NCBI GenBank assembly: GCA_963711585.1
Contig: CAVQEU010000002.1
Span: forward strand, 175,711-239,710
DNA length: 64,000 nt
Source of the DNA: an uncultured Acidobacteriota bacterium
Lineage (GTDB): Bacteria; Acidobacteriota; Blastocatellia; Pyrinomonadales; Pyrinomonadaceae
Direction: 5' to 3'
Shown here: piece after piece, positions 4,143 to 49,584 of the stretch
Layout of the letters: each line of letters opens with the position of its first letter
How positions within the stretch are numbered: the stretch's first letter is position 1
Notes under the pieces: generated by a model
Databases searched by the model: none
The model's input: the letters and a program-made list of their open reading frames with translations, nothing else
What the model was told of the DNA's origin: nothing
Translations under genes and position numbers: made by a program

Positions 4143-4176
4143 AGCCCGGATTGTTCTCGAAGCCCCGACAGGTTTC

Positions 4177-4406
4177 CGACCCCGAAGGGGTCGCACAAGA
4201 TAGCCGGGGGCAAGCGAAGTGCGCGTGAGCGCACGAAGCGCCGCCCCCGGAACGATGAGAAAAAGAATTTCGACCCTGAAAGGGTCGCACCTTCAAGGTT
4301 GAAGTGCGACCCTTTCAGGGTCGAAACATTTTTCCGTCTCTGACCGAGGGCGGCGCAAACTCGCGTTTGCTTGCCCCCGGCTATCTTGTTTATCCCCTCC
4401 GGGGAT
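4177..4406. repeat. Family D nested multi-hairpin palindrome (copy D1)
   Basis: Central palindrome at 4268-4326 (tttcgaccctgaaagggtcgcaccttcaa / ttgaagtgcgaccctttcagggtcgaaa). Perfect 20-bp outer arms caagatagccgggggcaagc (4196-4215) / gcttgcccccggctatcttg (4369-4388). Small flanking hairpins ccgaccccgaaggggtcg and atcccctccggggat. Confidence 0.85.
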
Positions 4407-4438
4407 GGGGCCGAGTCTTTTAATACTTCTCTGCGATT

Positions 4439-12444: not shown

Positions 12445-12533
12445 AGGGATGAGGGATGAGGGATGAGGGATGAAGGAAAGAAAGAAGGTTCTTAGTTTTT
12501 ATTCATCCCTCCGCCCTCCGCCCTCATCCCTCC
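12445..12533. repeat. Family B heptamer-arm hairpin (copy B1)
   Basis: Left arm is 4 x AGGGATG (12445-12472). Right arm is ttcatccc tccgccc tccgccc tcatccc (degenerate). It starts 1 nt after TAA 12441-12443. Confidence 0.85.
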
Positions 12534-12534
12534 G

Positions 12535-12566
12535 CTGACCCGCCCGCTACCGCAGGCGGTACTGAC
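12535..12566. repeat. Family C repeat, single arm (copy C1)
   Basis: ctgacccgcccgctaccgcaggcggtactgac is identical to the right arm of C2 at 19068-19094. Confidence 0.8.
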
Positions 12567-13365: not shown

Positions 13366-15436
13366 ATGATTCCGTCGGCTAAACAGCGGCGCGCCCGCTT
13401 CCATTTTCTGCTCGCCGCGCTGCTCGTCTTCTCTCTGTTTCCCCCCGCGCGCGCCCAAAGCGCCAAGCTTGAGCGCGCCCGTCAGATTCCTCCTGACGGG
13501 ACGGGCGCGCGCGTCAACGTAGACGCGCGCCGCGCAGAGGGGCGCATCAGCCCCTTGCTCTACGGCCACTTCCTTGAGTTCATGTACGAGGGCATCAAGG
13601 GCGGGCTGCACGCCGAGTTGATTCGCAACCGCAGTTTTGAAGAAGCGCCGAACGTGACGGGGCTCTCGCGCTACTGGGAGCGCTACCCGGACGACCGCAA
13701 CGACGACTACGGCCTGGCCTTCGCCTGGGACGCGGCCAATTCTTACCCACCCGCTAGAAAGAAGCTGGTCGAGCTTAAGGAGAAGGAGGCGGACGAGCAC
13801 GCCTTACGCGTCGAGGCGGGCGACGGCGTCATCAGCCGCCACGGCGTTTATCAATCACGCGTGCCCGTCCGCGCAGGTGTCGAATATCGCGGCTACCTGT
13901 GGATGAAGACGGCAAGCCTACGAAGGGCGCGTCACTGTCTCGCTCGAATCGGACGCGACCGAAGAGGTTTACAGTGAGGCCGACATCAGAAATGTTAGCG
14001 GCGACTGGCGCAAGTACGAGTTCACCTTGAGGCCGACGAAGACGGACAGGCTCGCCAAATTTTCCATACTCTTCTACGGGCGCGGGCGCGTCTTCGTTGA
14101 CCAGGTCTCGCTCATGCCAGTGGACGCGGCCGCTGGCGGCGTGCGCCGCGACGTGTTCGAGCAGGTGAAGGCGCTTCGTCCCGCCTTCCTGCGCTGGCCC
14201 GGCGGCAACGTCGCGCAGGACTACCGCTGGCTCTGGGGCGTCGGCCCGCGCGACGAGCGCGTCACCTGGGCCAATCTTTCGTGGAAGAACGAGCCGGAGC
14301 CGTCTGACTTCGGCACGGACGAGTACGTCCAGTTCGCGCGCGCCGTCGGCGCGGAGCCGACCATCACGGTCAACGTCGAGGGGCGCGGGGCTGACGTGGA
14401 AGAGGCCGCCGCGTGGGTCGAATACTGCAACGGCCCCGTCACTTCCAAGTATGGCGCGATGCGAGCGCGCAACGGACACCCGGAGCCTTACAACATCAAG
14501 CTCTGGGAGATCGGCAACGAAATCTGGGGCAACTGGGTGCGCGGCCACTCGACGGCAGAAACCTACGCGCGCAACTACAACCGCTACGTCCGCGCCATGC
14601 GCGCCGTAGATTCTTCCATCAAGTTCATAGCCGTCGGCGACAACGACATGAACTGGAACCGCGCGGTGCTCAAAATCGCCGGCCCGCAGATTGACTACCT
14701 CGCGATTCATCACTACTACAGCCGCAACGACCTCGGCGGCGACGACCTCAACCTGATGGCGCGCCCGCTTCACTACGAGAGGTTCTACAAACAGGTCGAG
14801 CAGTTGATTCGCGAGCAGGTGCCGGGCAAACAGATTCGGCTGGCGATTAACGAGTGGGGCTTAGACCTGCCCGTCGAGCGGCAGTATTCGATGGACTCCG
14901 CCGTCTACGGCGCGCGGCTGATGAACGTCTTCGAGCGCCAGGGCGACCTCGTAGAGATGAACGCCGTCTCGGACCTGGTCAACGGCTGGCCCGGCGGCAT
15001 CATACAGGCGAACCGCCACAGCGTTTTCGTCTCGCCGCTTTACCGCGTCATCAAGCTCTACAACGAGCGCCGGGGCGACGAGCGGTTGGGCGTGAGCGTG
15101 GAGGGGCGGACCTACGACACGACGCGCGAGGGAAAAGGGGTCGCGGCCCTGGACGCCGTCGCCAGCCGCTCGGCCGACGGCCGGAAGATTTACATCAAGC
15201 TCGTCAACACAGACCGGCAGCGCCCGCTCGAAACGTCAATCGAAGTCGCGGGCGCGCGCGTCGCAGGCACGGGCCTGATCGAGACGATCACGACGCACAC
15301 GCCCGCGCGCATGAACAGCTTTCAAACGCCCAACGCGATTGACGTGCGCGGCCGGCAACTGAACGTCGGGACGGGCAGCTTTACAGTCCTCCTCCCGAAA
15401 CAGTCTGTCTCGGTGATAACGTTGAGCATCAGGTAA
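13366..15436 (+). pseudogene. GH51 alpha-L-arabinofuranosidase, interrupted by a +1 frame change near 13915-13921
   Basis: The N-terminal part (frame of 13333) has RISPLLYGHFLEFMYEGI..ELIRNRSFEE. The catalytic part (frame of 14027) has FLRWPGGNVAQDY..LWEIGNEIWG. Frames join as ..WMKTAS/YEGRVTVSLES. Confidence 0.8.
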
Positions 15437-15448
15437 GATTGAAACGCG

Positions 15449-15548
15449 TCAACCCTTTGCGTCTTACGTTTTAACTTTGCGCCTTTGCGTGAAACAGCCG
15501 TTTCTCGCAAAGGCGCAAAGTAAAAACTAAAGGCGCAAAGGGGTTGAG
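15449..15548. repeat. Family A octamer-arm hairpin, long nested variant (copy A2)
   Basis: Outer arms are caaccctttgcg.. / ..gcgcaaaggggttg. Inner arms are ctttgcgcctttgcg / cgcaaaggcgcaaag. Tail motif cttgagttttgaaat is at ~15564-15578. Confidence 0.85.
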
Positions 15549-15601
15549 CCGTCATGCATGTAGCTTGAGTTTTGAAATGGATTCTTGACAGGCGGGTGGT
15601 T

Positions 15602-15751
15602 ATGCGGAAGAGACAAATTACGATGGAGGACGGGCGCTACCTGATTTTCTACACGTTCGAGGACGCGCCGCCTCCTGCCGAAGAGAAACACGTGGCAGAC
15701 GCCCGAGAGCCCGATGCCGAGCCTGAGGCCGAGGAGGAGCGAAGTGTCTGA
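15602..15751 (+). CDS. 49-aa upstream ORF encoding a GalT-type N-terminal segment (possibly the frameshifted 5' end of galT)
   Basis: MRKRQITMEDGRYLIFYTFED.. ends in GTGTCTGA, overlapping the galT GTG at 15744. It is below the ORF-track size cutoff. Confidence 0.35.
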   Translation: MRKRQITMEDGRYLIFYTFEDAPPPAEEKHVADAREPDAEPEAEEERSV

Positions 15752-16742
15752 GCTGCGCTGGAACCCTTTGCTCGGCGAGTGGGTGGCGACGGCCACGCAC
15801 AGGCAGGAGCGCACGTTCCTGCCGCCCGCAGACTTCTGCCCCCTTTGTCCGACGAAGCCGGGCGGCTTCCCGACGGAAGTCCCCGAGCCCGACTACGACA
15901 TTGCCGTCTTCGAGAACCGTTTCCCCAGTCTGCGGCCAGACCCGCCGCCGCCCGCCGTCGAAGGCACGGAGCTTTACCCCGTCAGGCCCGGCCAGGGCGT
16001 CTGCGAAGTCGTCCTCTACACGCCGCACCACAAGGCAACTCTGGCGGACGAACCCGTCGAGCAGATTCACAAGCTCGTGCAGGTCTGGACCGACCGCTTC
16101 CGCGCGCTCGAAGCGCTCGACTTCGTCGAATACGTCTTCATCTTCGAAAACAAGGGCGAGGCCATAGGCGTCACCTTACACCACCCGCACGGGCAGATTT
16201 ACGCCTACCCGTTTATCCCGCCGCGCGTCGCCACCGAGTTGGAGCAGACGCGCGCGCACCACCTGAAGACCGGGCGCTGTCTCCTCTGCGATATTGTTGG
16301 TGAAGAGAAGAGAGACGGCCGTCGCATAGTCGCGGAGAACAATTCTTTCGTCGCCTTCATCCCGTTCTCCGCGCGCTATCCTTACGAGGTGCACATCTGC
16401 TCGTCGCGCCACCTGCAAGCCTTAACCGACATGAGCGACGAGGAGGGGCGCGATTTGGCCTCCATGCTCAAGACGATCCTCGTGGCCTACGACCGCCTGT
16501 TCAATTTGTCGTTCCCCTACATGATGGTCCTGCACCAGCGGCCGTCTGACGGCGGCGGCTACGAGCACTACCATTTCCACATAGAGTTTTACCCGCCGCT
16601 GAGGACGGCGACCAAGCTCAAGTACCTCGCCGGGAGCGAGACCGGCGCGGGGCTTTTTATCAACGACACGCTGGCCGAGGAGAAGGCCGTCGAGTTGCGC
16701 GAGCGCGTCACGCCCGTAATCTGGGGCGGCGAGAAAGGGTAA
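15744..16742 (+). CDS. galT: galactose-1-phosphate uridylyltransferase
   Basis: GTG 15744 follows GAGGAGGAG. CPLCP zinc motif, FENRFPS, and active-site HPHGQIYAYPF are present. Confidence 0.9.
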   Translation: MSELRWNPLLGEWVATATHRQERTFLPPADFCPLCPTKPGGFPTEVPEPDYDIAVFENRFPSLRPDPPPPAVEGTELYPVRPGQGVCEVVLYTPHHKATLADEPVEQIHKLVQVWTDRFRALEALDFVEYVFIFENKGEAIGVTLHHPHGQIYAYPFIPPRVATELEQTRAHHLKTGRCLLCDIVGEEKRDGRRIVAENNSFVAFIPFSARYPYEVHICSSRHLQALTDMSDEEGRDLASMLKTILVAYDRLFNLSFPYMMVLHQRPSDGGGYEHYHFHIEFYPPLRTATKLKYLAGSETGAGLFINDTLAEEKAVELRERVTPVIWGGEKG

Positions 16743-16751
16743 AGAGTAAGA

Positions 16752-17918
16752 TTGGTCGAGCGGGAAGTTCTGCGCCAGGCTTTTGTCCAGACTTACGGGC
16801 GAGCGCCCCGTCTGTTTCGCGCGCCCGGCCGAGTCAACCTGATCGGCGAGCACACGGACTACAACGACGGCTTCGTCCTGCCGATGGCGATTGACCGCGA
16901 GACGGTCGTCGCCGCCGCAGTGCGCGACGACCGGCATGTACGCGCCTTCTCGCTGAACCTGAACGAGGGGGCCGAGTTTGACCTGGACAATCCGGGGCCG
17001 CCGCGGCGCGGCCTCTGGCTCGACTACGTGGAGGGGGTGGCGCAGGCGCTTCTGCGGACGGGCGCGCAACTCAAGGGCGCGGACCTGATGATCTCTTCGG
17101 ACGTGCCGTCGGGCGCGGGTCTCTCCTCCTCGGCCGCGCTCGAAATCTCCACGGGCTTCGCGCTCCTGAGCGTTTCCGGGTTAGAGGTTGACCGGGTCCG
17201 GCTCGCGCTCGCCGGACAGCGCGCCGAGCACGAGTACGCGGGGGCCATGGTCGGCATCATGGACCAGTTCGTCGCCGCGCTGGGCCGCAAAGGGCATGCG
17301 CTCCTGATTGATTGCCGCAGCCTGGAACACACGCCCGTCCCGCTCGACACGACCCGCGTGGCCGTCGTCATCTGCGACTCGCGCGTCAAGCACGAGCTTT
17401 CCGACTCTGAGTACAACGTGCGCCGCGCAGAGTGCGAGCGCGGCGTAGAGCTTCTGGGAAAAGTCCTGCCGGGGATCCGTGCCCTGCGCGACGTGACGGT
17501 CGAAGACTTCGAGCGGCATGAGACAGTTCTGCCGGAGCCTATCAGGAGGCGCTGCCGCCACGTCGTCACGGAGAACGACCGCACGCTGCGCGCGGTTAAG
17601 GCGCTTCGCCGCAACGACCTGGAAGAGACGGGCCGCCTGATGAAGTGCTCGCACCGCTCCTTGCGCGACGACTACGAAGTCAGTTGCGCCGAGTTGGATT
17701 TGCTGGTCGAGATAGCAGGCGGCTTCTCGGCGTGCCTGGGCGCGCGCATGACCGGCGGCGGCTTCGGCGGCTCGACCGTCAACCTCGTGCGCCGCGACGC
17801 CCTCCCCGAATTTCAGTCGCTCATCAGCACGGAGTACCAACGAGCGACCAACACCGCCCCGAACATCTACGTCTCGGACGCGGGCGACGGAGCAAAGGAG
17901 GTAAGGGATGAGGGATGA
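16752..17918 (+). CDS. galK: galactokinase
   Basis: GRVNLIGEHTDYNDG signature plus the GAGLSSSAALE GHMP motif. The TGA stop lies inside repeat B2. Confidence 0.92.
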   Translation: MVEREVLRQAFVQTYGRAPRLFRAPGRVNLIGEHTDYNDGFVLPMAIDRETVVAAAVRDDRHVRAFSLNLNEGAEFDLDNPGPPRRGLWLDYVEGVAQALLRTGAQLKGADLMISSDVPSGAGLSSSAALEISTGFALLSVSGLEVDRVRLALAGQRAEHEYAGAMVGIMDQFVAALGRKGHALLIDCRSLEHTPVPLDTTRVAVVICDSRVKHELSDSEYNVRRAECERGVELLGKVLPGIRALRDVTVEDFERHETVLPEPIRRRCRHVVTENDRTLRAVKALRRNDLEETGRLMKCSHRSLRDDYEVSCAELDLLVEIAGGFSACLGARMTGGGFGGSTVNLVRRDALPEFQSLISTEYQRATNTAPNIYVSDAGDGAKEVRDEG

Positions 17919-17982
17919 GGGATGAGGGATGAAGGAAAAGCGTTTGCCTTTCTTCATCCCTCATCCCTCATCCCTCATCCCT
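17904..17982. repeat. Family B heptamer-arm hairpin (copy B2, near perfect)
   Basis: 4 x AGGGATG (17904-17931), a loop containing aaaagcgtttgcc, then 4 x CATCCCT (17955-17982). Confidence 0.9.
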
Positions 17983-19023
17983 CAAAACTTGTCTATCAAA
18001 GATGTGGCACGCGAGGCGGGAGTTTCGACGGCGACCGTCTCGCACGTCATCAACAACACGAGGCACGTCTCGGACGAGGTCCGCGCGCGTGTGCTCGAAG
18101 CCATCAAGCGCTGCGACTACTACCCGAACGCGCAGGCGCGGAGCCTCGCCTCTGGGCGCAACCACACGCTCGGCCTTTTGATTTCAGACATCGCCAACCC
18201 GTTCTTCCCCGAGCTGGTCAAGAGCATCGAGACGGCGGCGTTCGAGCGCGGCTACGACGTGGTGCTGGCGAACACGAACTACGAGGCGGGGCGCACGTCG
18301 AACTACGTGCGCCGCTTGATAGAGCGCAAGGTCGCGGGCGTCGCCCTGATGACTTCGGAGTTGGACATGACGCTCGTGGACGAATTGGCGCGGCGTGACG
18401 TGTGCGTCGTCTTCCTCGACCAGGAGTTGTTCGGCGCGCACATGAGCAACCTCGTCGTCAATTACGCCGCCGGGATTGAAGAGGCGATTCAACACCTGGT
18501 CGCGCTCGGCCACAGGCGCATCAATTACATCGGCGGCCCTGCGCGGCTGCGCTCGGCGGCCAAGCGGCGCGAGGCGTTCACGGATTCGGTCGCGCGCCTG
18601 CTGCCGGGCTCGCGCCCCGTGATTTACGAAGGCGACTTCAAAATCGAGGGCGGCCGCCGGGCGGCGGGCCTGATGCTTGAGGGCGGGCGCACGCCGACCG
18701 CGGTCGTCGCCGCCAACGACATGATGGCGCTCGGCGCGATGCAGGAGTTCCGCGCCGCAGGGCTGACGGTCCCGCACGACATCTCGGTCGTCGGCTTCGA
18801 CGACATCGCGTTCGCCTCGCTGACGGACCCGCCGCTGACGACCGTCTGCCTGCCGCGCATGGAATTGGGCCTGCGCGCCGTCGAGGCGCTGATGACGACC
18901 ATCGAGCACACGGAGAGGCAGGGCGTCGAAATTCAAATCCCGACCTATCTCATCGCGCGCGGCTCGACCGCGCCCACGCAGAAGGCGGCCGTGAAAAAGC
19001 GTCGTCGCGGGTCGAAGAGATGA
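17929..19023 (+). CDS. LacI-family transcriptional regulator
   Basis: HTH motif IKDVAREAGVSTATVSHVINN plus a periplasmic-binding-protein-like core. The start is either ATG 17929 (inside repeat B2, adds 20 aa) or TTG 17989 (MSIKDVA..). Confidence 0.88.
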   Translation: MKEKRLPFFIPHPSSLIPQNLSIKDVAREAGVSTATVSHVINNTRHVSDEVRARVLEAIKRCDYYPNAQARSLASGRNHTLGLLISDIANPFFPELVKSIETAAFERGYDVVLANTNYEAGRTSNYVRRLIERKVAGVALMTSELDMTLVDELARRDVCVVFLDQELFGAHMSNLVVNYAAGIEEAIQHLVALGHRRINYIGGPARLRSAAKRREAFTDSVARLLPGSRPVIYEGDFKIEGGRRAAGLMLEGGRTPTAVVAANDMMALGAMQEFRAAGLTVPHDISVVGFDDIAFASLTDPPLTTVCLPRMELGLRAVEALMTTIEHTERQGVEIQIPTYLIARGSTAPTQKAAVKKRRRGSKR

Positions 19024-19094
19024 GTCAGTACCGCCTGCGGTAGCGGGCGGACTGTAGCGTCGAGCACCCGCCCGCTACCGCAGGCGGTACTGAC
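19024..19094. repeat. Family C perfect 27-bp inverted repeat (copy C2)
   Basis: gtcagtaccgcctgcggtagcgggcgg - 17 nt - ccgcccgctaccgcaggcggtactgac. Each arm holds an internal palindrome, taccgcctgcggta. It sits directly after the LacI stop. Confidence 0.9.
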
Positions 19095-22798: not shown

Positions 22799-22866
22799 CT
22801 TTGCGTCTTTGCGCCTCCAGCGTGAAAAATAAAAACCACTCACGCTGGAGGCGCAAAGACGCAAAG
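22799..22866. repeat. Family A octamer-arm hairpin (copy A3, perfect 27-bp stem)
   Basis: ctttgcgtctttgcgcctccagcgtga - 14 nt - tcacgctggaggcgcaaagacgcaaag. Confidence 0.92.
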
Positions 22867-25786: not shown

Positions 25787-27442
25787 ATGAGTGCGAGTGC
25801 GAGTGCGGCGGCGGTGGAGCGGCCGACGTTGGAGATGTCCGGGCGGCGGCGTTGGGCCGTGACGGCGGGCGTGATGACGGGGATGTTTCTGGCGGCGCTG
25901 GAGGCGACCGTGGTCGGGACGGCGATGCCGACCGTCATCTCTTCGCTCGGCGGGTTGAATCATTATAGCTGGGTCTTCTCGGCCTACCTGATAACGTCCA
26001 CGGTGACTGTGCCAGTTTGGGGTAAGCTCTCAGACCTCTACGGGCGCAGGCTCTTTTACCAGATCGGCATCGCGGTCTTCCTCGCGGGCTCCGTGCTTTC
26101 GGGGATGTCCACCTCCATGGCGCAGTTGATCATCTTCCGCGCCATACAGGGGTTGGGCGCGGGCGCGCTCGTGCCGCTCGGCATGACGATCATCGGCGAC
26201 ATCTTCACGCTCGAAGAGCGCGCGCGCATGCAGGCGTTCTTCAGCGGCGTGTGGGGGCTCGCGAGCGTCATCGGCCCGGTCGTCGGCGGCTTCATCACTG
26301 ACCAGTTGTCCTGGCCCTGGGTCTTTTACATCAACCTGCCCGTGGGGCTCGCGGCCGCGCTCATCATCGGCCTCGCGCTCAAAGAGCCCAGGCGCACGAA
26401 GCGGCCCGTGATTGATTACGCGGGTGGGGCGCTCCTGATGGCGGCCATCACGCTCCTGATGCTCGCGCTCGTGGAAGGCGGGACGAGCCTCGCGACGCTT
26501 CTCGCGCCCGCGAACCTCGCGCTCTTCGCGGGGGCAGTCGCGTTGATGGCGCTCTTTGTCTGGGTGGAGCGACGCGCCGCGGACCCGATTGTTCCGTTCA
26601 AGCTCTTCCGCAACCGTGTGATCGCGGTCGCCGTCACGGCGGGGTTTCTGGCGGGCGTGGCGATGTTCGGCGCGATCTCTTTCATCCCGCTCTTCGCGCA
26701 GGGCGCGCTGGGCTCGACCGCGACCGAGGCCGGGTCGCTCTTGACGCCGCTCATGCTGAGCTGGGTTGGGATGTCCGTCATAGGCGGCCGCCTGCTGCTC
26801 AAGGTCGGATACCGCCCGACGTGCGTCGTCGGCTTCACACTTCTGACGCTCGGCTTCGTCCTGCTCTCGACCTTTCAACGCGAGACGGCGCGCGTCTGGC
26901 TCTACGTTGACCTGATACTAATCGGCGCGGGGTTGGGCCTCACGATGCTGACGCTGATCCTCGCGGTGCAGCAGGCCGTGTCGCGCGCGCAGTTGGGCGT
27001 GGCGACCTCGCTCAACCAGTTCGCGCGCTCAATCGGCGGCGCGGTCGGCGTCGCCGTGATGGGCGCGGTCCTTTCGGCGGGGCTCGCTTCGCAGTTGAGC
27101 GAAGTGGCGCGGACGGGGAACGCGGCGTTGACGCCCGAGCGTGCGGAGCAACTTGCGGCGAACCCGAACGCGTTGATTGACCCGCACGCGCAGGCTGAAC
27201 TCGCGCCCGGCACTCTGGACGCCCTGCGCGGGGCGATGGCCTCTGCGATTCACAGCGTCTTCTGGGTCGGGACCGTGGTCTCGGCGCTGGCGCTCTTAGT
27301 CTCGTTCTATCTGCCGCGCCGCGGCGACCCCGTAGTCGAAGAGCCGACAGAGGACACGTGCTGCGCGGAGACGGGCGAGCGCATGGTCATGGCAGAGATG
27401 ACCACCATTGACCCGGAGCATGAGCCGGTCGCGGCGGATTAG
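25787..27442 (+). CDS. MFS transporter, DHA2 (EmrB/QacA, 14-TMS) type
   Basis: 551 aa with ~14 hydrophobic segments. Motif A-like GKLSDLYGRR. Acidic cytoplasmic tail. Confidence 0.85.
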   Translation: MSASASAAAVERPTLEMSGRRRWAVTAGVMTGMFLAALEATVVGTAMPTVISSLGGLNHYSWVFSAYLITSTVTVPVWGKLSDLYGRRLFYQIGIAVFLAGSVLSGMSTSMAQLIIFRAIQGLGAGALVPLGMTIIGDIFTLEERARMQAFFSGVWGLASVIGPVVGGFITDQLSWPWVFYINLPVGLAAALIIGLALKEPRRTKRPVIDYAGGALLMAAITLLMLALVEGGTSLATLLAPANLALFAGAVALMALFVWVERRAADPIVPFKLFRNRVIAVAVTAGFLAGVAMFGAISFIPLFAQGALGSTATEAGSLLTPLMLSWVGMSVIGGRLLLKVGYRPTCVVGFTLLTLGFVLLSTFQRETARVWLYVDLILIGAGLGLTMLTLILAVQQAVSRAQLGVATSLNQFARSIGGAVGVAVMGAVLSAGLASQLSEVARTGNAALTPERAEQLAANPNALIDPHAQAELAPGTLDALRGAMASAIHSVFWVGTVVSALALLVSFYLPRRGDPVVEEPTEDTCCAETGERMVMAEMTTIDPEHEPVAAD

Positions 27443-29006: not shown

Positions 29007-29091
29007 CTTTTGCGCCTTTGCGCCTTTGCGTGAAATTTTCCTCACGCAAAGGCGCAAAGACGCAAAGGGGTTGAGTTTGGTTTTGAAATGG
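29007..29091. repeat. Family A octamer-arm hairpin with tail motif (copy A4)
   Basis: cttttgcgcctttgcgcctttgcgtga..tcacgcaaaggcgcaaagacgcaaaggggttgag + tttggttttgaaatgg. Confidence 0.9.
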
Positions 29092-30633: not shown

Positions 30634-30685
30634 CTTTTGCGCCTTTGCGTGAGATGTTTTGGTTTTCTCACGCAAAGGCGCAAAG
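30634..30685. repeat. Family A octamer-arm hairpin (copy A5)
   Basis: cttttgcgcctttgcgtgaga..tctcacgcaaaggcgcaaag. Confidence 0.85.
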
Positions 30686-37181: not shown

Positions 37182-37201
37182 GATTAGAAACTGTTTGAGA
37201 A

Positions 37202-37398
37202 GTCCCGTCAGGGACGATTGATAATAGCCCAGCACTTCAGTGCTGGGAATACAGTCGAAAATTTTATCGAGTCCCGTAGGGACGACTGAACCGGAGCGTC
37301 ACGCTTGATTCAGCCGTCCCTACGGGACTCAGCTATAATTTCTACTTCACACCCAGCACTGAAGTGCTGGGCTATTTTCATGTCGTCCCTGACGGGAC
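37202..37398. repeat. Family D nested multi-hairpin palindrome (copy D3)
   Basis: Three arm pairs, each block itself a hairpin: gtcccgtcagggacga/tcgtccctgacgggac, aatagcccagcacttcagtgctggg/cccagcactgaagtgctgggctatt, gagtcccgtagggacg/cgtccctacgggactc. Confidence 0.9.
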
Positions 37399-37465
37399 GA
37401 AAAGAGCCTGGCTCGTCTCGATGTCATGGAACTCGTTCATTAATCGTTTAAGGGCCGTAAGTCTG

Positions 37466-37533
37466 CTTTGCGCCTTTGCGTCTTGGCGTGAGAAAATTTA
37501 AATCACTCACGCCGGAGACGTAAAGGCGCAAAG
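37466..37533. repeat. Family A octamer-arm hairpin (copy A6)
   Basis: ctttgcgcctttgcgtcttggcgtgag..ctcacgccggagacgtaaaggcgcaaagg. Confidence 0.85.
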
Positions 37534-45569: not shown

Positions 45570-45577
<8 letters not shown>

Positions 45578-45645
45578 TGAATGATGAATCAAAAGCGTTT
45601 GTCTTTTATTCGTCCTTCATCCTTCATCATTCATCATTCATCATT
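45570..45645. repeat. Family B heptamer-arm hairpin, GAATGAT variant (copy B3)
   Basis: ggaatgatgaatgatgaatc - aaaagcgtttgtc.. - ccttcatccttcatcattcatcattcatcatt. The loop core is shared with B2. Confidence 0.85.
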
Positions 45646-46966: not shown

Positions 46967-47066
46967 CTCAACTCCTTTGCGCCTTACGTCTTAACTTTGC
47001 GTCTTTGCGAGAACGGCTGTTTCACGCTGGAGGCGCTAAGAGAAGACGTAAGGCGCAAAGGGTTGA
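46967..47066. repeat. Family A octamer-arm hairpin, long nested variant (copy A7)
   Basis: Outer arms are caactcctttgcgccttacgtctt / aagacgtaaggcgcaaagggttg. Tail motif cttgagttttgaaacc is at ~47079-47094. Confidence 0.85.
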
Positions 47067-49514: not shown

Positions 49515-49584
49515 CAAACCCTTTTGCGCCTTTGCGTCTCCAGCGTGAAAAATTAATATCACGCAAAGACGCAAAGGCGCAAAG
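49515..49584. repeat. Family A octamer-arm hairpin (copy A8)
   Basis: cttttgcgcctttgcgtctccagcgtga..tcacgcaaagacgcaaaggcgcaaag. Confidence 0.85.

Follow-up and report, generated by a model that had tools for sequence, protein, structure and literature searches.

A heptamer-armed hairpin between galK and lacI in an uncultured Acidobacteriota genome and its likely kinship with S23p-bearing palindromes

Tandem heptamer repeats have been noted in bacteria since 1990 and, to our knowledge, without an explanation. They include the cyanobacterial heptamer repeats known as STRR, and SDR elements were reportedly described in cyanobacteria by Elhai in 2008. Among other intergenic repeats, repetitive extragenic palindromic (REP) elements, REPINs and hairpin-forming MITEs (miniature inverted-repeat transposable elements) are co-transcribed with flanking genes; REPs make no target-site duplication (TSD), Correia elements are reportedly processed by RNase III, and the mycobacterial MIRU are direct 40–100 bp repeats with in-phase small open reading frames (ORFs), intercistronic in operons. 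Here we describe a hairpin with tandem-heptamer arms at positions 17904–17982 of a 64,000-nucleotide stretch of DNA (the window; G000:C2:175711-239710), between galK and a LacI-family regulator gene of an uncultured Pyrinomonadaceae bacterium (genome G000, 6.43 Mb, 61% GC).

The intervening sequence (IVS) that Coxiella burnetii carries in its 23S rRNA has a 28-bp terminal stem, a variable number of tandem GACAGAT heptamers and an ORF for S23p (Warrier et al. 2016, PMC4990558), and RNase III cuts it within the stem, at the first repeat (PMC4990558). Xanthomonas genomes carry GGGAATC arrays, most often of four units, with 70–75 convergent (inverted) pairs per genome (Rehm et al. 2015, PMC4692102). 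These lie between co-directional ORFs, at most 50 bp from stop codons or overlapping them; gaps between divergent ORFs are depleted of them, and most are transcribed. Rehm et al. read them as G-quadruplexes (G4) and showed G4 formation (PMC4692102). TAACTGA direct repeats occur at sites that include the interior of ribosomal operons (MacGregor 2015, PMC4679880).

Structure, families and turnover of heptamer hairpins

The galK–lacI hairpin is, in our judgement, probably a gene-less (miniature) copy of a superfamily of heptamer-armed palindromes whose full-length members carry an S23p gene in the loop. Its arms, the dispersed copies in a fixed arm order, the S23p-bearing relatives and the exchange between copies all point, at the level of sequence, to this membership. 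The hairpin and its flanking genes are laid out as follows.

16752..17918, + strand: galK, galactokinase (GalKase_gal_bdg and GHMP kinase domains); its last four to five codons (…VRDEG*) and its TGA are encoded by the arm
17904..17937, + strand: 5′ arm, (AGGGATG)4 at 17904–17931 followed by the inner stem AAGGAA; holds the galK stop
17938..17948, + strand: loop or centre (AAGCGTTTGCC), the hypervariable part of the hairpin
17949..17982, + strand: 3′ arm, TTTCTT followed by (CATCCCT)4 at 17955–17982; stop-free in every frame of this strand
17989..19023, + strand: LacI-family regulator gene; likeliest start TTG 17989 (MSIKDVAREAGVS…), 6 nt past the hairpin

As an earlier reading of the letters alone (the sequence-only reading) had claimed, the arms of the element are (AGGGATG)4 and (CATCCCT)4; between them lies a 23-nt centre (GAAGGAAAAGCGTTTGCCTTTCTT). 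Tandem Repeats Finder recovered both arrays at period 7 (4.7 and 4.4 copies, 96–100% matches), and an inverted-repeat scan gave 34-nt arms, 97% complementary and separated by 11 nt. The RNA was predicted to fold into one 34-bp stem of −71.7 kcal/mol, compared with −32.1 ± 3.6 kcal/mol for dinucleotide shuffles (z = −10.9; 0 of 200 equally stable). Rfam contained no family matching the hairpin; at a permissive threshold it returned eukaryotic miRNA-precursor models alone, all under their gathering scores, which we regard as generic long-hairpin noise.

A strict genome-wide regular expression for AGGGATG…CATCCCT hairpins found 65–68 copies in G000. The element is therefore not unique; confinement to a few loci was among the findings that, by the sequence-only reading, would have counted against its proposal. 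The arm order was AGGGATG…CATCCCT in 67/67 hairpins, with 4 + 4 perfect units as the modal form (33/67); AGGGATGx3 occurred 109 + 104 times in G000 and the same pattern read backwards 0 times, which is far beyond chance. These hairpins come in a short form of ~80 nt and a long form of ~107 nt, the inner module of the latter being two small covarying hairpins that were found exclusively inside AGGGATG arms (20/20).

AGGGATG is one unit among many. Heptamers predominate among perfect arrays of period 5–10 with at least three copies in G000, and a unit-agnostic detector recovered inverted tandem-array pairs at period 7 only. At least 15 heptamer units share the hairpin architecture, including AAGTGAT (120 copies), CAGTTTT (76), AGGGATG (68) and AAATCGT (65), and the genome holds at least 452 paired heptamer hairpins (35 kb) with a single arm order throughout. 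AT-rich ‘AAAGA…TCTTT’ inner stems are a feature of these hairpins, and nesting is occasional: at G000:C11:64893-65052, the loop of an AAGTGAT-family hairpin is the exact site of a complete hairpin of the AATCGT family, and a similar compound AGGGATG structure is found at the galK|lacI junction of one metagenome-assembled genome (MAG; locus L002).

The G-rich unit invites a reading as a regulatory repeat whose 5′ arm folds as G4 in DNA or RNA. The arm matches the motif G3N4G3N4G3N4G3 in sequence (GGGATGAGGGATGAGGGATGAGGG), (AGGGATG)4 fits G3-L1-7 x4, and similar GGGAATC repeats form G4 (PMC4692102). Most families of the same architecture (AAGTGAT, CAGTTTT, AATCGTA, AATCAGT and others) are, however, free of G-runs, and the complementary arm 20 nt away strongly favours duplex or hairpin formation, which makes this reading very unlikely.

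We compared orthologous gaps by BLAST of their flanks. The nearest galK relatives of G000 are Pyrinomonadaceae MAGs (Acidobacteriota); most relatives compared are MAGs, whose contigs frequently break at heptamer repeats. AGGGATGx3 was present in 15/16 congeners, at 0 to ~190 copies per strand. Some further genera of the family have it too, as does one neighbouring-family genome, but in a sample of the phylum it occurred in only 7/301 genomes.

At the galK|lacI junction a heptamer hairpin was found in 10/10 genomes, eight of which have a junction of ~103–111 nt, with units that differ by genome (AGGGATG, GAATGAT/ATGCGGA, AGTGCGG, GAGTACT and AGGTGAC). Between G000 and its relative G014, the centre of this hairpin differs while the arms are identical and the flanks 98.4% identical; G000 and G014 copies also differ in within-arm unit order and centre between flanks that are 97–98% identical. 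In the S17|L14 gap, conservation covers the S17 end and the Shine–Dalgarno (SD) sequence (CGAACGGAGTGAGC), and a strong hairpin separates the two in ~24/24 family genomes. Its units vary, sister species sometimes being one base apart (CAGTTTT vs CAGGTTT), and no hairpin was found at this junction in the outgroup family f7 or in G026.

Joined-flank probes for 34 AGGGATG copies revealed three clean empty sites in relatives. At these sites neighbouring genes either overlap or abut (TAA|ATG, TGA|ATG), and no TSD was visible in the three clean empty/filled pairs; at other probed sites the relative has either some other small hairpin or remains of a heptamer family other than AGGGATG. In the window, G004 and G012 have an empty site where G000 has its AGGGATG copy at 12445. 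At 738–819, an octamer hairpin stands in G000 and G012 and a heptamer hairpin in G016 and G004, and G015 has neither. Presence/absence and exchange were thus both seen among close relatives, with empty sites in G004, G015, G016 and G012. Together, these sequence comparisons show that heptamer hairpins are gained, lost, replaced and exchanged copy-to-copy among relatives.

Movement of intergenic, multi-copy hairpins without TSD would also be expected of a REPIN/REP element mobilized by a RAYT (Y1 transposase), and G000 has four Y1_Tnp genes. Heptamer arrays border none of the four; they are flanked by classical REP-like hairpins particular to each gene and of other types than the one studied here, and the heptamer elements have tandem-repeat arms and no GTAG/CGTC-type tag. 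We consider this origin extremely unlikely. MITE hallmarks, namely TSD and an autonomous insertion sequence (IS) with matching terminal inverted repeats, were not found either, and a search for an autonomous parent with heptamer termini gave long-range inverted arrays that enclose ordinary genes (ribosomal proteins, HU) or S23p.

Further heptamer elements in the window include:

12445..12531, + strand: second AGGGATG copy; right arm degenerate (CCGCCCT units); begins 1 nt past a TAA
20104..20136, + strand: solo (GGCAGTG)n array directly past a stop codon; the G015 site has a CAGAATC/CAGGAGT-type hairpin
45572..45645, + strand: GAATGAT-family hairpin between convergent genes; same-family hairpin in G012, G015 and G004, decayed in G016

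The genome also contains an abundant octamer hairpin family with alternating octamers (CCTTTGCG/TCTTTGCG … CGCAAAGG), which occupies post-stop sites as the heptamer hairpins do. Its copies in the window are at 753–814, 15453–15542, 22799–22866, 29009–29066, 30636–30684, 37466–37533, 46974–47061 and 49523–49583. Within window positions 15437–16742, G012, G015 and G016 lack both galT (15714–16742) and its upstream octamer element at the orthologous position, the BLAST high-scoring segment pair leaping from 15434 to 16710; G004 has galT without the octamer element. A perfect 27-bp inverted repeat (GTCAGTACCGCCTGCGGTAGCGGGCGG), REPIN-like, lies at 19024–19094 between the lacI stop and the SD of the next gene (with a half copy at ~12540–12566). 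G000 and G016 have it, whereas G012, G015 and G014 lack it and have 8 nt between the stop and the SD-ATG. Finally, window positions 4143–4438 hold a ~290-nt REP-like palindrome cluster between convergent genes, matched by a long inverted-order cluster in G012 and ~80–120 nt in G004 and G014, and nearly absent in G015 and G016.

The galK stop, the LacI start and hairpin position between genes

The galK TGA (17916–17918) straddles the boundary of arm units 2 and 3, so the proposal that the arm supplies this stop is borne out, and the same is seen in 9/10 orthologous junctions, the stop falling within the first one to three arm units. G016 galK has its own TAA, 7 nt ahead of the hairpin, and an element-free galK (L003) terminates at almost the same position. 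Any frame entering (AGGGATG)n closes in at most six codons (RDEG*, GMRDEG* or G*); as TGA is in all frames of an AGGGATG arm, an upstream gene that enters the arm gains a tail of up to six codons and a new stop, as galK did. The wider claim, that TGA and ATG are offered in all three frames, holds for the AGGGATG unit and fails for the superfamily, in which the 76-copy CAGTTTT family has a stop-free 5′ arm.

The sequence-only reading had further proposed that the element is at once a frame-independent stop and a re-initiation site, at which an arm ATG and SD would give an N-terminally extended LacI. ATG 17929 in unit 4 is indeed in frame with the LacI ORF (17929–19023), TGA, ATG and GAGGG do occur in all frames of (AGGGATG)n, AGGG stands 7 nt from the next unit’s ATG, and galK terminates in the arm. 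The extended protein would carry a 20-aa leader (MKEKRLPFFIPHPSSLIPQN), and the Pfam LacI helix–turn–helix begins at residue 22 of this long (364-aa) ORF. The orthologues argue against such a leader, which even the closest relative lacks. In 10/10 LacI orthologues a post-hairpin start codon (six ATG, four TTG) is kept 9–12 nt before a conserved K/R codon, giving M-S/R-I-K-D-V-A. An in-frame ATG farther upstream was found only in this genome and one MAG; G014, with identical arms and flanks 98.4% identical, has no in-frame start within the hairpin, and G012, G015 and G004 have in-frame stops 4–5 codons upstream of lacI. With a stop-free 3′ arm and two to three arm ATGs reading through, an in-frame ATG has roughly the odds of a coin flip and is expected by chance in a large share of copies.

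LacI probably keeps its own TTG 17989 past the 3′ arm, and the in-frame ATG is then a by-product. Judged from sequence conservation, TTG 17989 is most likely the lacI start, with no SD in the spacer between it and the hairpin, and the 20-aa leader is best regarded as an artefact of annotation. The arm ATG and SD would also be buried in the −71.7 kcal/mol stem, the CAGTTTT family is positioned alike despite its stop-free 5′ arm, and ribosomal operons have a separate conserved SD between hairpin and start. For these reasons, we consider the combined stop-and-restart role highly improbable. An in-phase ORF with a conserved stop/start overlap, as expected of a MIRU-like coupler, was likewise not found, the leader frame being unconserved among the ten orthologues. 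The case carries a practical warning: ORF callers will stretch genes into heptamer arms, as in the 364-aa LacI call, and will give genes element-encoded C-terminal tails.

At certain other loci an element-supplied start is possible, and one such locus favours restart. At G000:C9:26216-26300, an AGGGATG hairpin is inserted at a former TAA|ATG joint that is intact in G004; the downstream gene has lost its conserved, ancestral ATG, and its candidate starts are the in-frame ATGs at 26234 (arm) and 26261 (loop) and GTG 26318.

Positions were scored genome-wide on the calls of a simple, rough codon-usage gene caller (4779 genes in G000), by which 450/452 heptamer hairpins are intergenic. Co-directional gaps hold 79% of them, against a background of 60–72% that depends on the null; divergent gaps are depleted (9% vs 14–23%) and convergent gaps are not enriched (11.5% vs 14–17%). 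Among co-directional cases, the upstream stop lies inside the element in 98/356 and 0–10 nt from it in 131/356, a total of 229/356, in agreement with the predicted bias of the repeat to gene ends. The median distance is 5 nt from stop to element and 16 nt from element to start, and removal of the element would leave a median spacer of 25 nt; at convergent sites, the element is flanked at each end by an abutting stop. In the CAGTTTT family, without a stop in the 5′ arm, 31/59 copies are within 10 nt of a stop and only 7 have the stop inside. This family is equally stop-proximal, so closeness to stops is independent of an arm-supplied stop, and the idea of a purpose-built, frame-independent stop finds no support.

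Ribosomal operons, arm upkeep and S23p genes

A transcriptional role had also been proposed, and an intrinsic, possibly bidirectional, terminator between galK and lacI would account for a very stable stem right after a stop codon. Flanks of the family are symmetric and mildly to moderately A/T-rich, with A prevailing 5′ of the element and T 3′ of it, and some copies lie between convergent genes. The 3′ flank of the galK–lacI copy (CAAAACTTG) is, however, without a U-tract, and the GC-rich stem with U-tract at an operon end that defines intrinsic terminators was not found here. Genome-wide, at least five T in the nine downstream nucleotides were seen for 20–30% of copies, equally on sense and antisense strands, and convergent gaps are, as described above, unenriched. 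In the str-S10-spc-alpha cluster (G000:C9:905000-931600), ~23 heptamer hairpins of at least four unit families occupy ~21/36 junctions (~60%), compared with 356/3405 co-directional junctions genome-wide. The layout there is stop, 0–10 nt, hairpin, SD and ATG, with the conserved extended SD (CGAACGGAGTGAGC) at many junctions. As they stand inside ribosomal-protein operons, the hairpins cannot be efficient terminators, and we regard a terminator between galK and lacI as improbable.

The same operons bear on a different proposal, that the hairpin is a selected intercistronic RNA element which protects the galK 3′ end, sets the galK:lacI ratio by processing or uncouples translation through ribosomes that stall at a stop codon lying inside the stem, with mobility merely its route of arrival. 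Although the sequence has turned over completely, a hairpin persists at galK|lacI in 10/10 genomes and at S17|L14 in essentially every genome of the family; stems are near-perfect even at old sites, and the stop is usually closer to the element than the next start is. Ribosome stalling has been reported for REPs that lie at most 15 nt from a stop codon. The share of genes with a 3′-end hairpin also climbs with the codon adaptation index (CAI), from 1.3% at the lowest decile to ~13% at the highest ones (ribosomal reference cluster excluded; Mann-Whitney p = 7e-23), and ~60% of ribosomal-protein junctions carry a hairpin.

Other observations speak against selection on the transcript fold. Isolated transition mismatches in the stems of 199 co-directional elements were symmetric on the sense strand (G·U 107 vs A·C 101, p = 0.73), and the asymmetric inner module was randomly oriented to transcription (8 opposite, 6 same); without a G·U excess or a preferred module orientation, strand-symmetric arm maintenance at the DNA level is favoured. 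Other sites are empty/filled polymorphic among congeners, outgroup families lack the hairpin at the same ribosomal junction, and one copy at galK|lacI (L001) is decaying with non-compensated mismatches. We therefore consider a selected RNA element possible, though rather doubtful. The hairpins have dispersed, have been gained, lost and exchanged, have landed at tight gene joints without TSD and have kept near-perfect arms through a strand-symmetric process.

Returning to the hairpin as a miniature superfamily member, we suggest that arm upkeep would combine copying between copies, unit slippage and arm-to-arm templated correction of quasi-palindromes, all of which are known mutational mechanisms. 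The hairpin may have spread as a non-autonomous copy of an S23p cassette, with the cognate S23p protein the leading candidate for the trans-acting factor. S23p is a small four-helix-bundle ‘23S rRNA intervening-sequence protein’, related to the Avd protein of diversity-generating retroelements (DGR). Insertion at an abutting stop/start joint may be near-neutral for translation, because the stem base would appose the galK stop and the lacI start. In the galK–lacI transcript the 34-bp stem would form and probably be cut by RNase III, by analogy with S23p-type IVS; the gene for this enzyme (rnc) is present in G000. Such a cut would not terminate transcription but split the message into its two cistrons, each keeping a remnant of the stem.

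The link to S23p comes from gene content. G000 has three PF05635 genes, each in the loop between inverted heptamer arrays (AATCGT, CAGTTTT and CAGGAGT), and all three are co-oriented with the host genes and wedged from stop to next start (3/3). PF05635 genes were found in 37/41 relatives and are missing from all three genomes of f7, the family that also lacks the S17|L14 hairpin. Among 32 S23p loci in relatives, 16 have perfect inverted heptamer pairs and ~13 more were read as having degenerate pairs (~29/32). Cassettes with AGGGATG arms, found at four different genomic sites in G014, G010, G001 and G020, encode a distinct S23p subtype, and the AGGGATG-type protein matches PDB 2RLD (E = 4.7e-22). 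The long-form inner module was considered as a remnant of an S23p cassette and rejected, the similarity being confined to the arms.

On a tree of 41 S23p proteins, 7 changes suffice to account for the arm-unit labels of 8 groups, and no smaller number is possible; the mean for shuffles of the labels was 17.9, with 0/200 as low, though kinship inflates such clustering and the result therefore establishes gene–arm linkage and not yet specificity. Several S23p clades coexist per genome, and some clade–unit pairs cross families. We tentatively propose, as a conjecture we would not yet bet on, that S23p proteins are sequence-specific partners of heptamer arrays, each clade recognizing a 7-nt unit of its own and promoting the copying or upkeep of hairpins with that unit, and gene-less copies being non-autonomous riders.

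Several points weigh against kinship with S23p cassettes or against the part proposed for the protein. No AGGGATG-type S23p gene or remnant was found in G000 (assembly 93.5% complete), which leaves current activity of the family unproven, and no transposase or other catalytic partner for heptamer hairpins was identified; we know of no enzymatic activity or function of S23p. The match of clade to unit can stem from vertical co-inheritance of cassettes. Universal occupancy (galK|lacI 10/10, S17|L14 family-wide) is also expected from a selected function, as is the 10-fold enrichment beside high-CAI genes, and RNase III cleavage of heptamer stems is an analogy, not an observation.

If the partnership of S23p and heptamers is real, it would constitute a new class of prokaryotic mobile element without a recognizable transposase, and would offer a joint explanation of rRNA IVS, cyanobacterial STRR, Xanthomonas heptamers and the function of a widespread family of orphan proteins. 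G000 gives an unusually clean view of the matter, with hundreds of copies in discrete unit families, exact empty and occupied sites, unit turnover, ribosomal saturation and a one-to-one match of S23p clade to unit, and two hypotheses can now be tested: that S23p binds its cognate heptamer, and that RNase III cuts operon mRNAs at the stems.

Comparison with described systems

Like REP/REPIN–RAYT systems and the hairpin MITEs (Correia/NEMIS, ERIC), the heptamer hairpins are non-autonomous palindromic intergenic repeats. Unlike them, they have arms of microsatellite-like tandem units and no matching RAYT or IS parent, and their candidate partner is a non-enzymatic four-helix-bundle protein. MIRU and the galK–lacI hairpin are alike in lying between cistrons and in being able to supply an upstream gene with its stop and a downstream gene with its start, but the element described here is a hairpin without a conserved stop/start overlap.

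A separate palindrome in the window touches on REP biology. Rfam Acido-Lenti-1 matches at 37201–37247 (− strand) and 37352–37399 (+ strand) are the arms of a nested palindrome, and hairpins of this palindrome (gtcccgtcagggac, cccagcactgaagtgctggg, gtcccgtagggac) also flank a Y1-transposase (RAYT-like) gene at G000:C20:354056-354400. As these hairpins are common to both, Acido-Lenti-1 may be a RAYT-associated REP and not a small RNA.

The Xanthomonas GGGAATC and Nostoc GGGGA(C/T)T arrays (PMC4692102) resemble AGGGATG in their G-rich unit, modal four units, common hairpin orientation, place near stops between co-directional ORFs and depletion in coding DNA and between divergent ORFs. They differ in phylum and unit, their authors drew no link to S23p or mobility, and most sister families in G000 are not G-rich. 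STRR and TAACTGA repeats are, like the G000 heptamers, intergenic, with related units that interchange and small structured modules embedded (compare the long-form core). TAACTGA-type repeats are mostly direct arrays that end just before starts, with only one inverted pair reported in the Beggiatoa genome (PMC4679880), whereas inverted pairs are the rule in G000.

We found no published paper joining intergenic heptamer hairpins to S23p genes. Among the described systems nearest to the hairpin is the S23p-type IVS of Coxiella and Leptospira. The element is no classical 23S IVS, as it lies between galK and lacI and not in helix 25 or 45. An IVS in the 23S rRNA of G000 itself was considered and set aside, the gene being without heptamer arrays, long inverted repeats or a PF05635 gene; that gene (G000:C6:2890-6594) is 3705 nt long against a 2925-position Rfam model, ~780 nt extra. 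The galK–lacI hairpin differs from the S23p IVS in lying between protein genes, in having no ORF and in its size (~80 nt vs ~430 nt), and RNase III cleavage, demonstrated for the IVS, is proposed for the hairpin by analogy. Both the IVS and the hairpin superfamily nonetheless have a long stem of inverted repeats, tandem heptamers (in the IVS varying in copy number among strains) and, in the full-length form, a PF05635 gene in the loop, and both are regarded as selfish.

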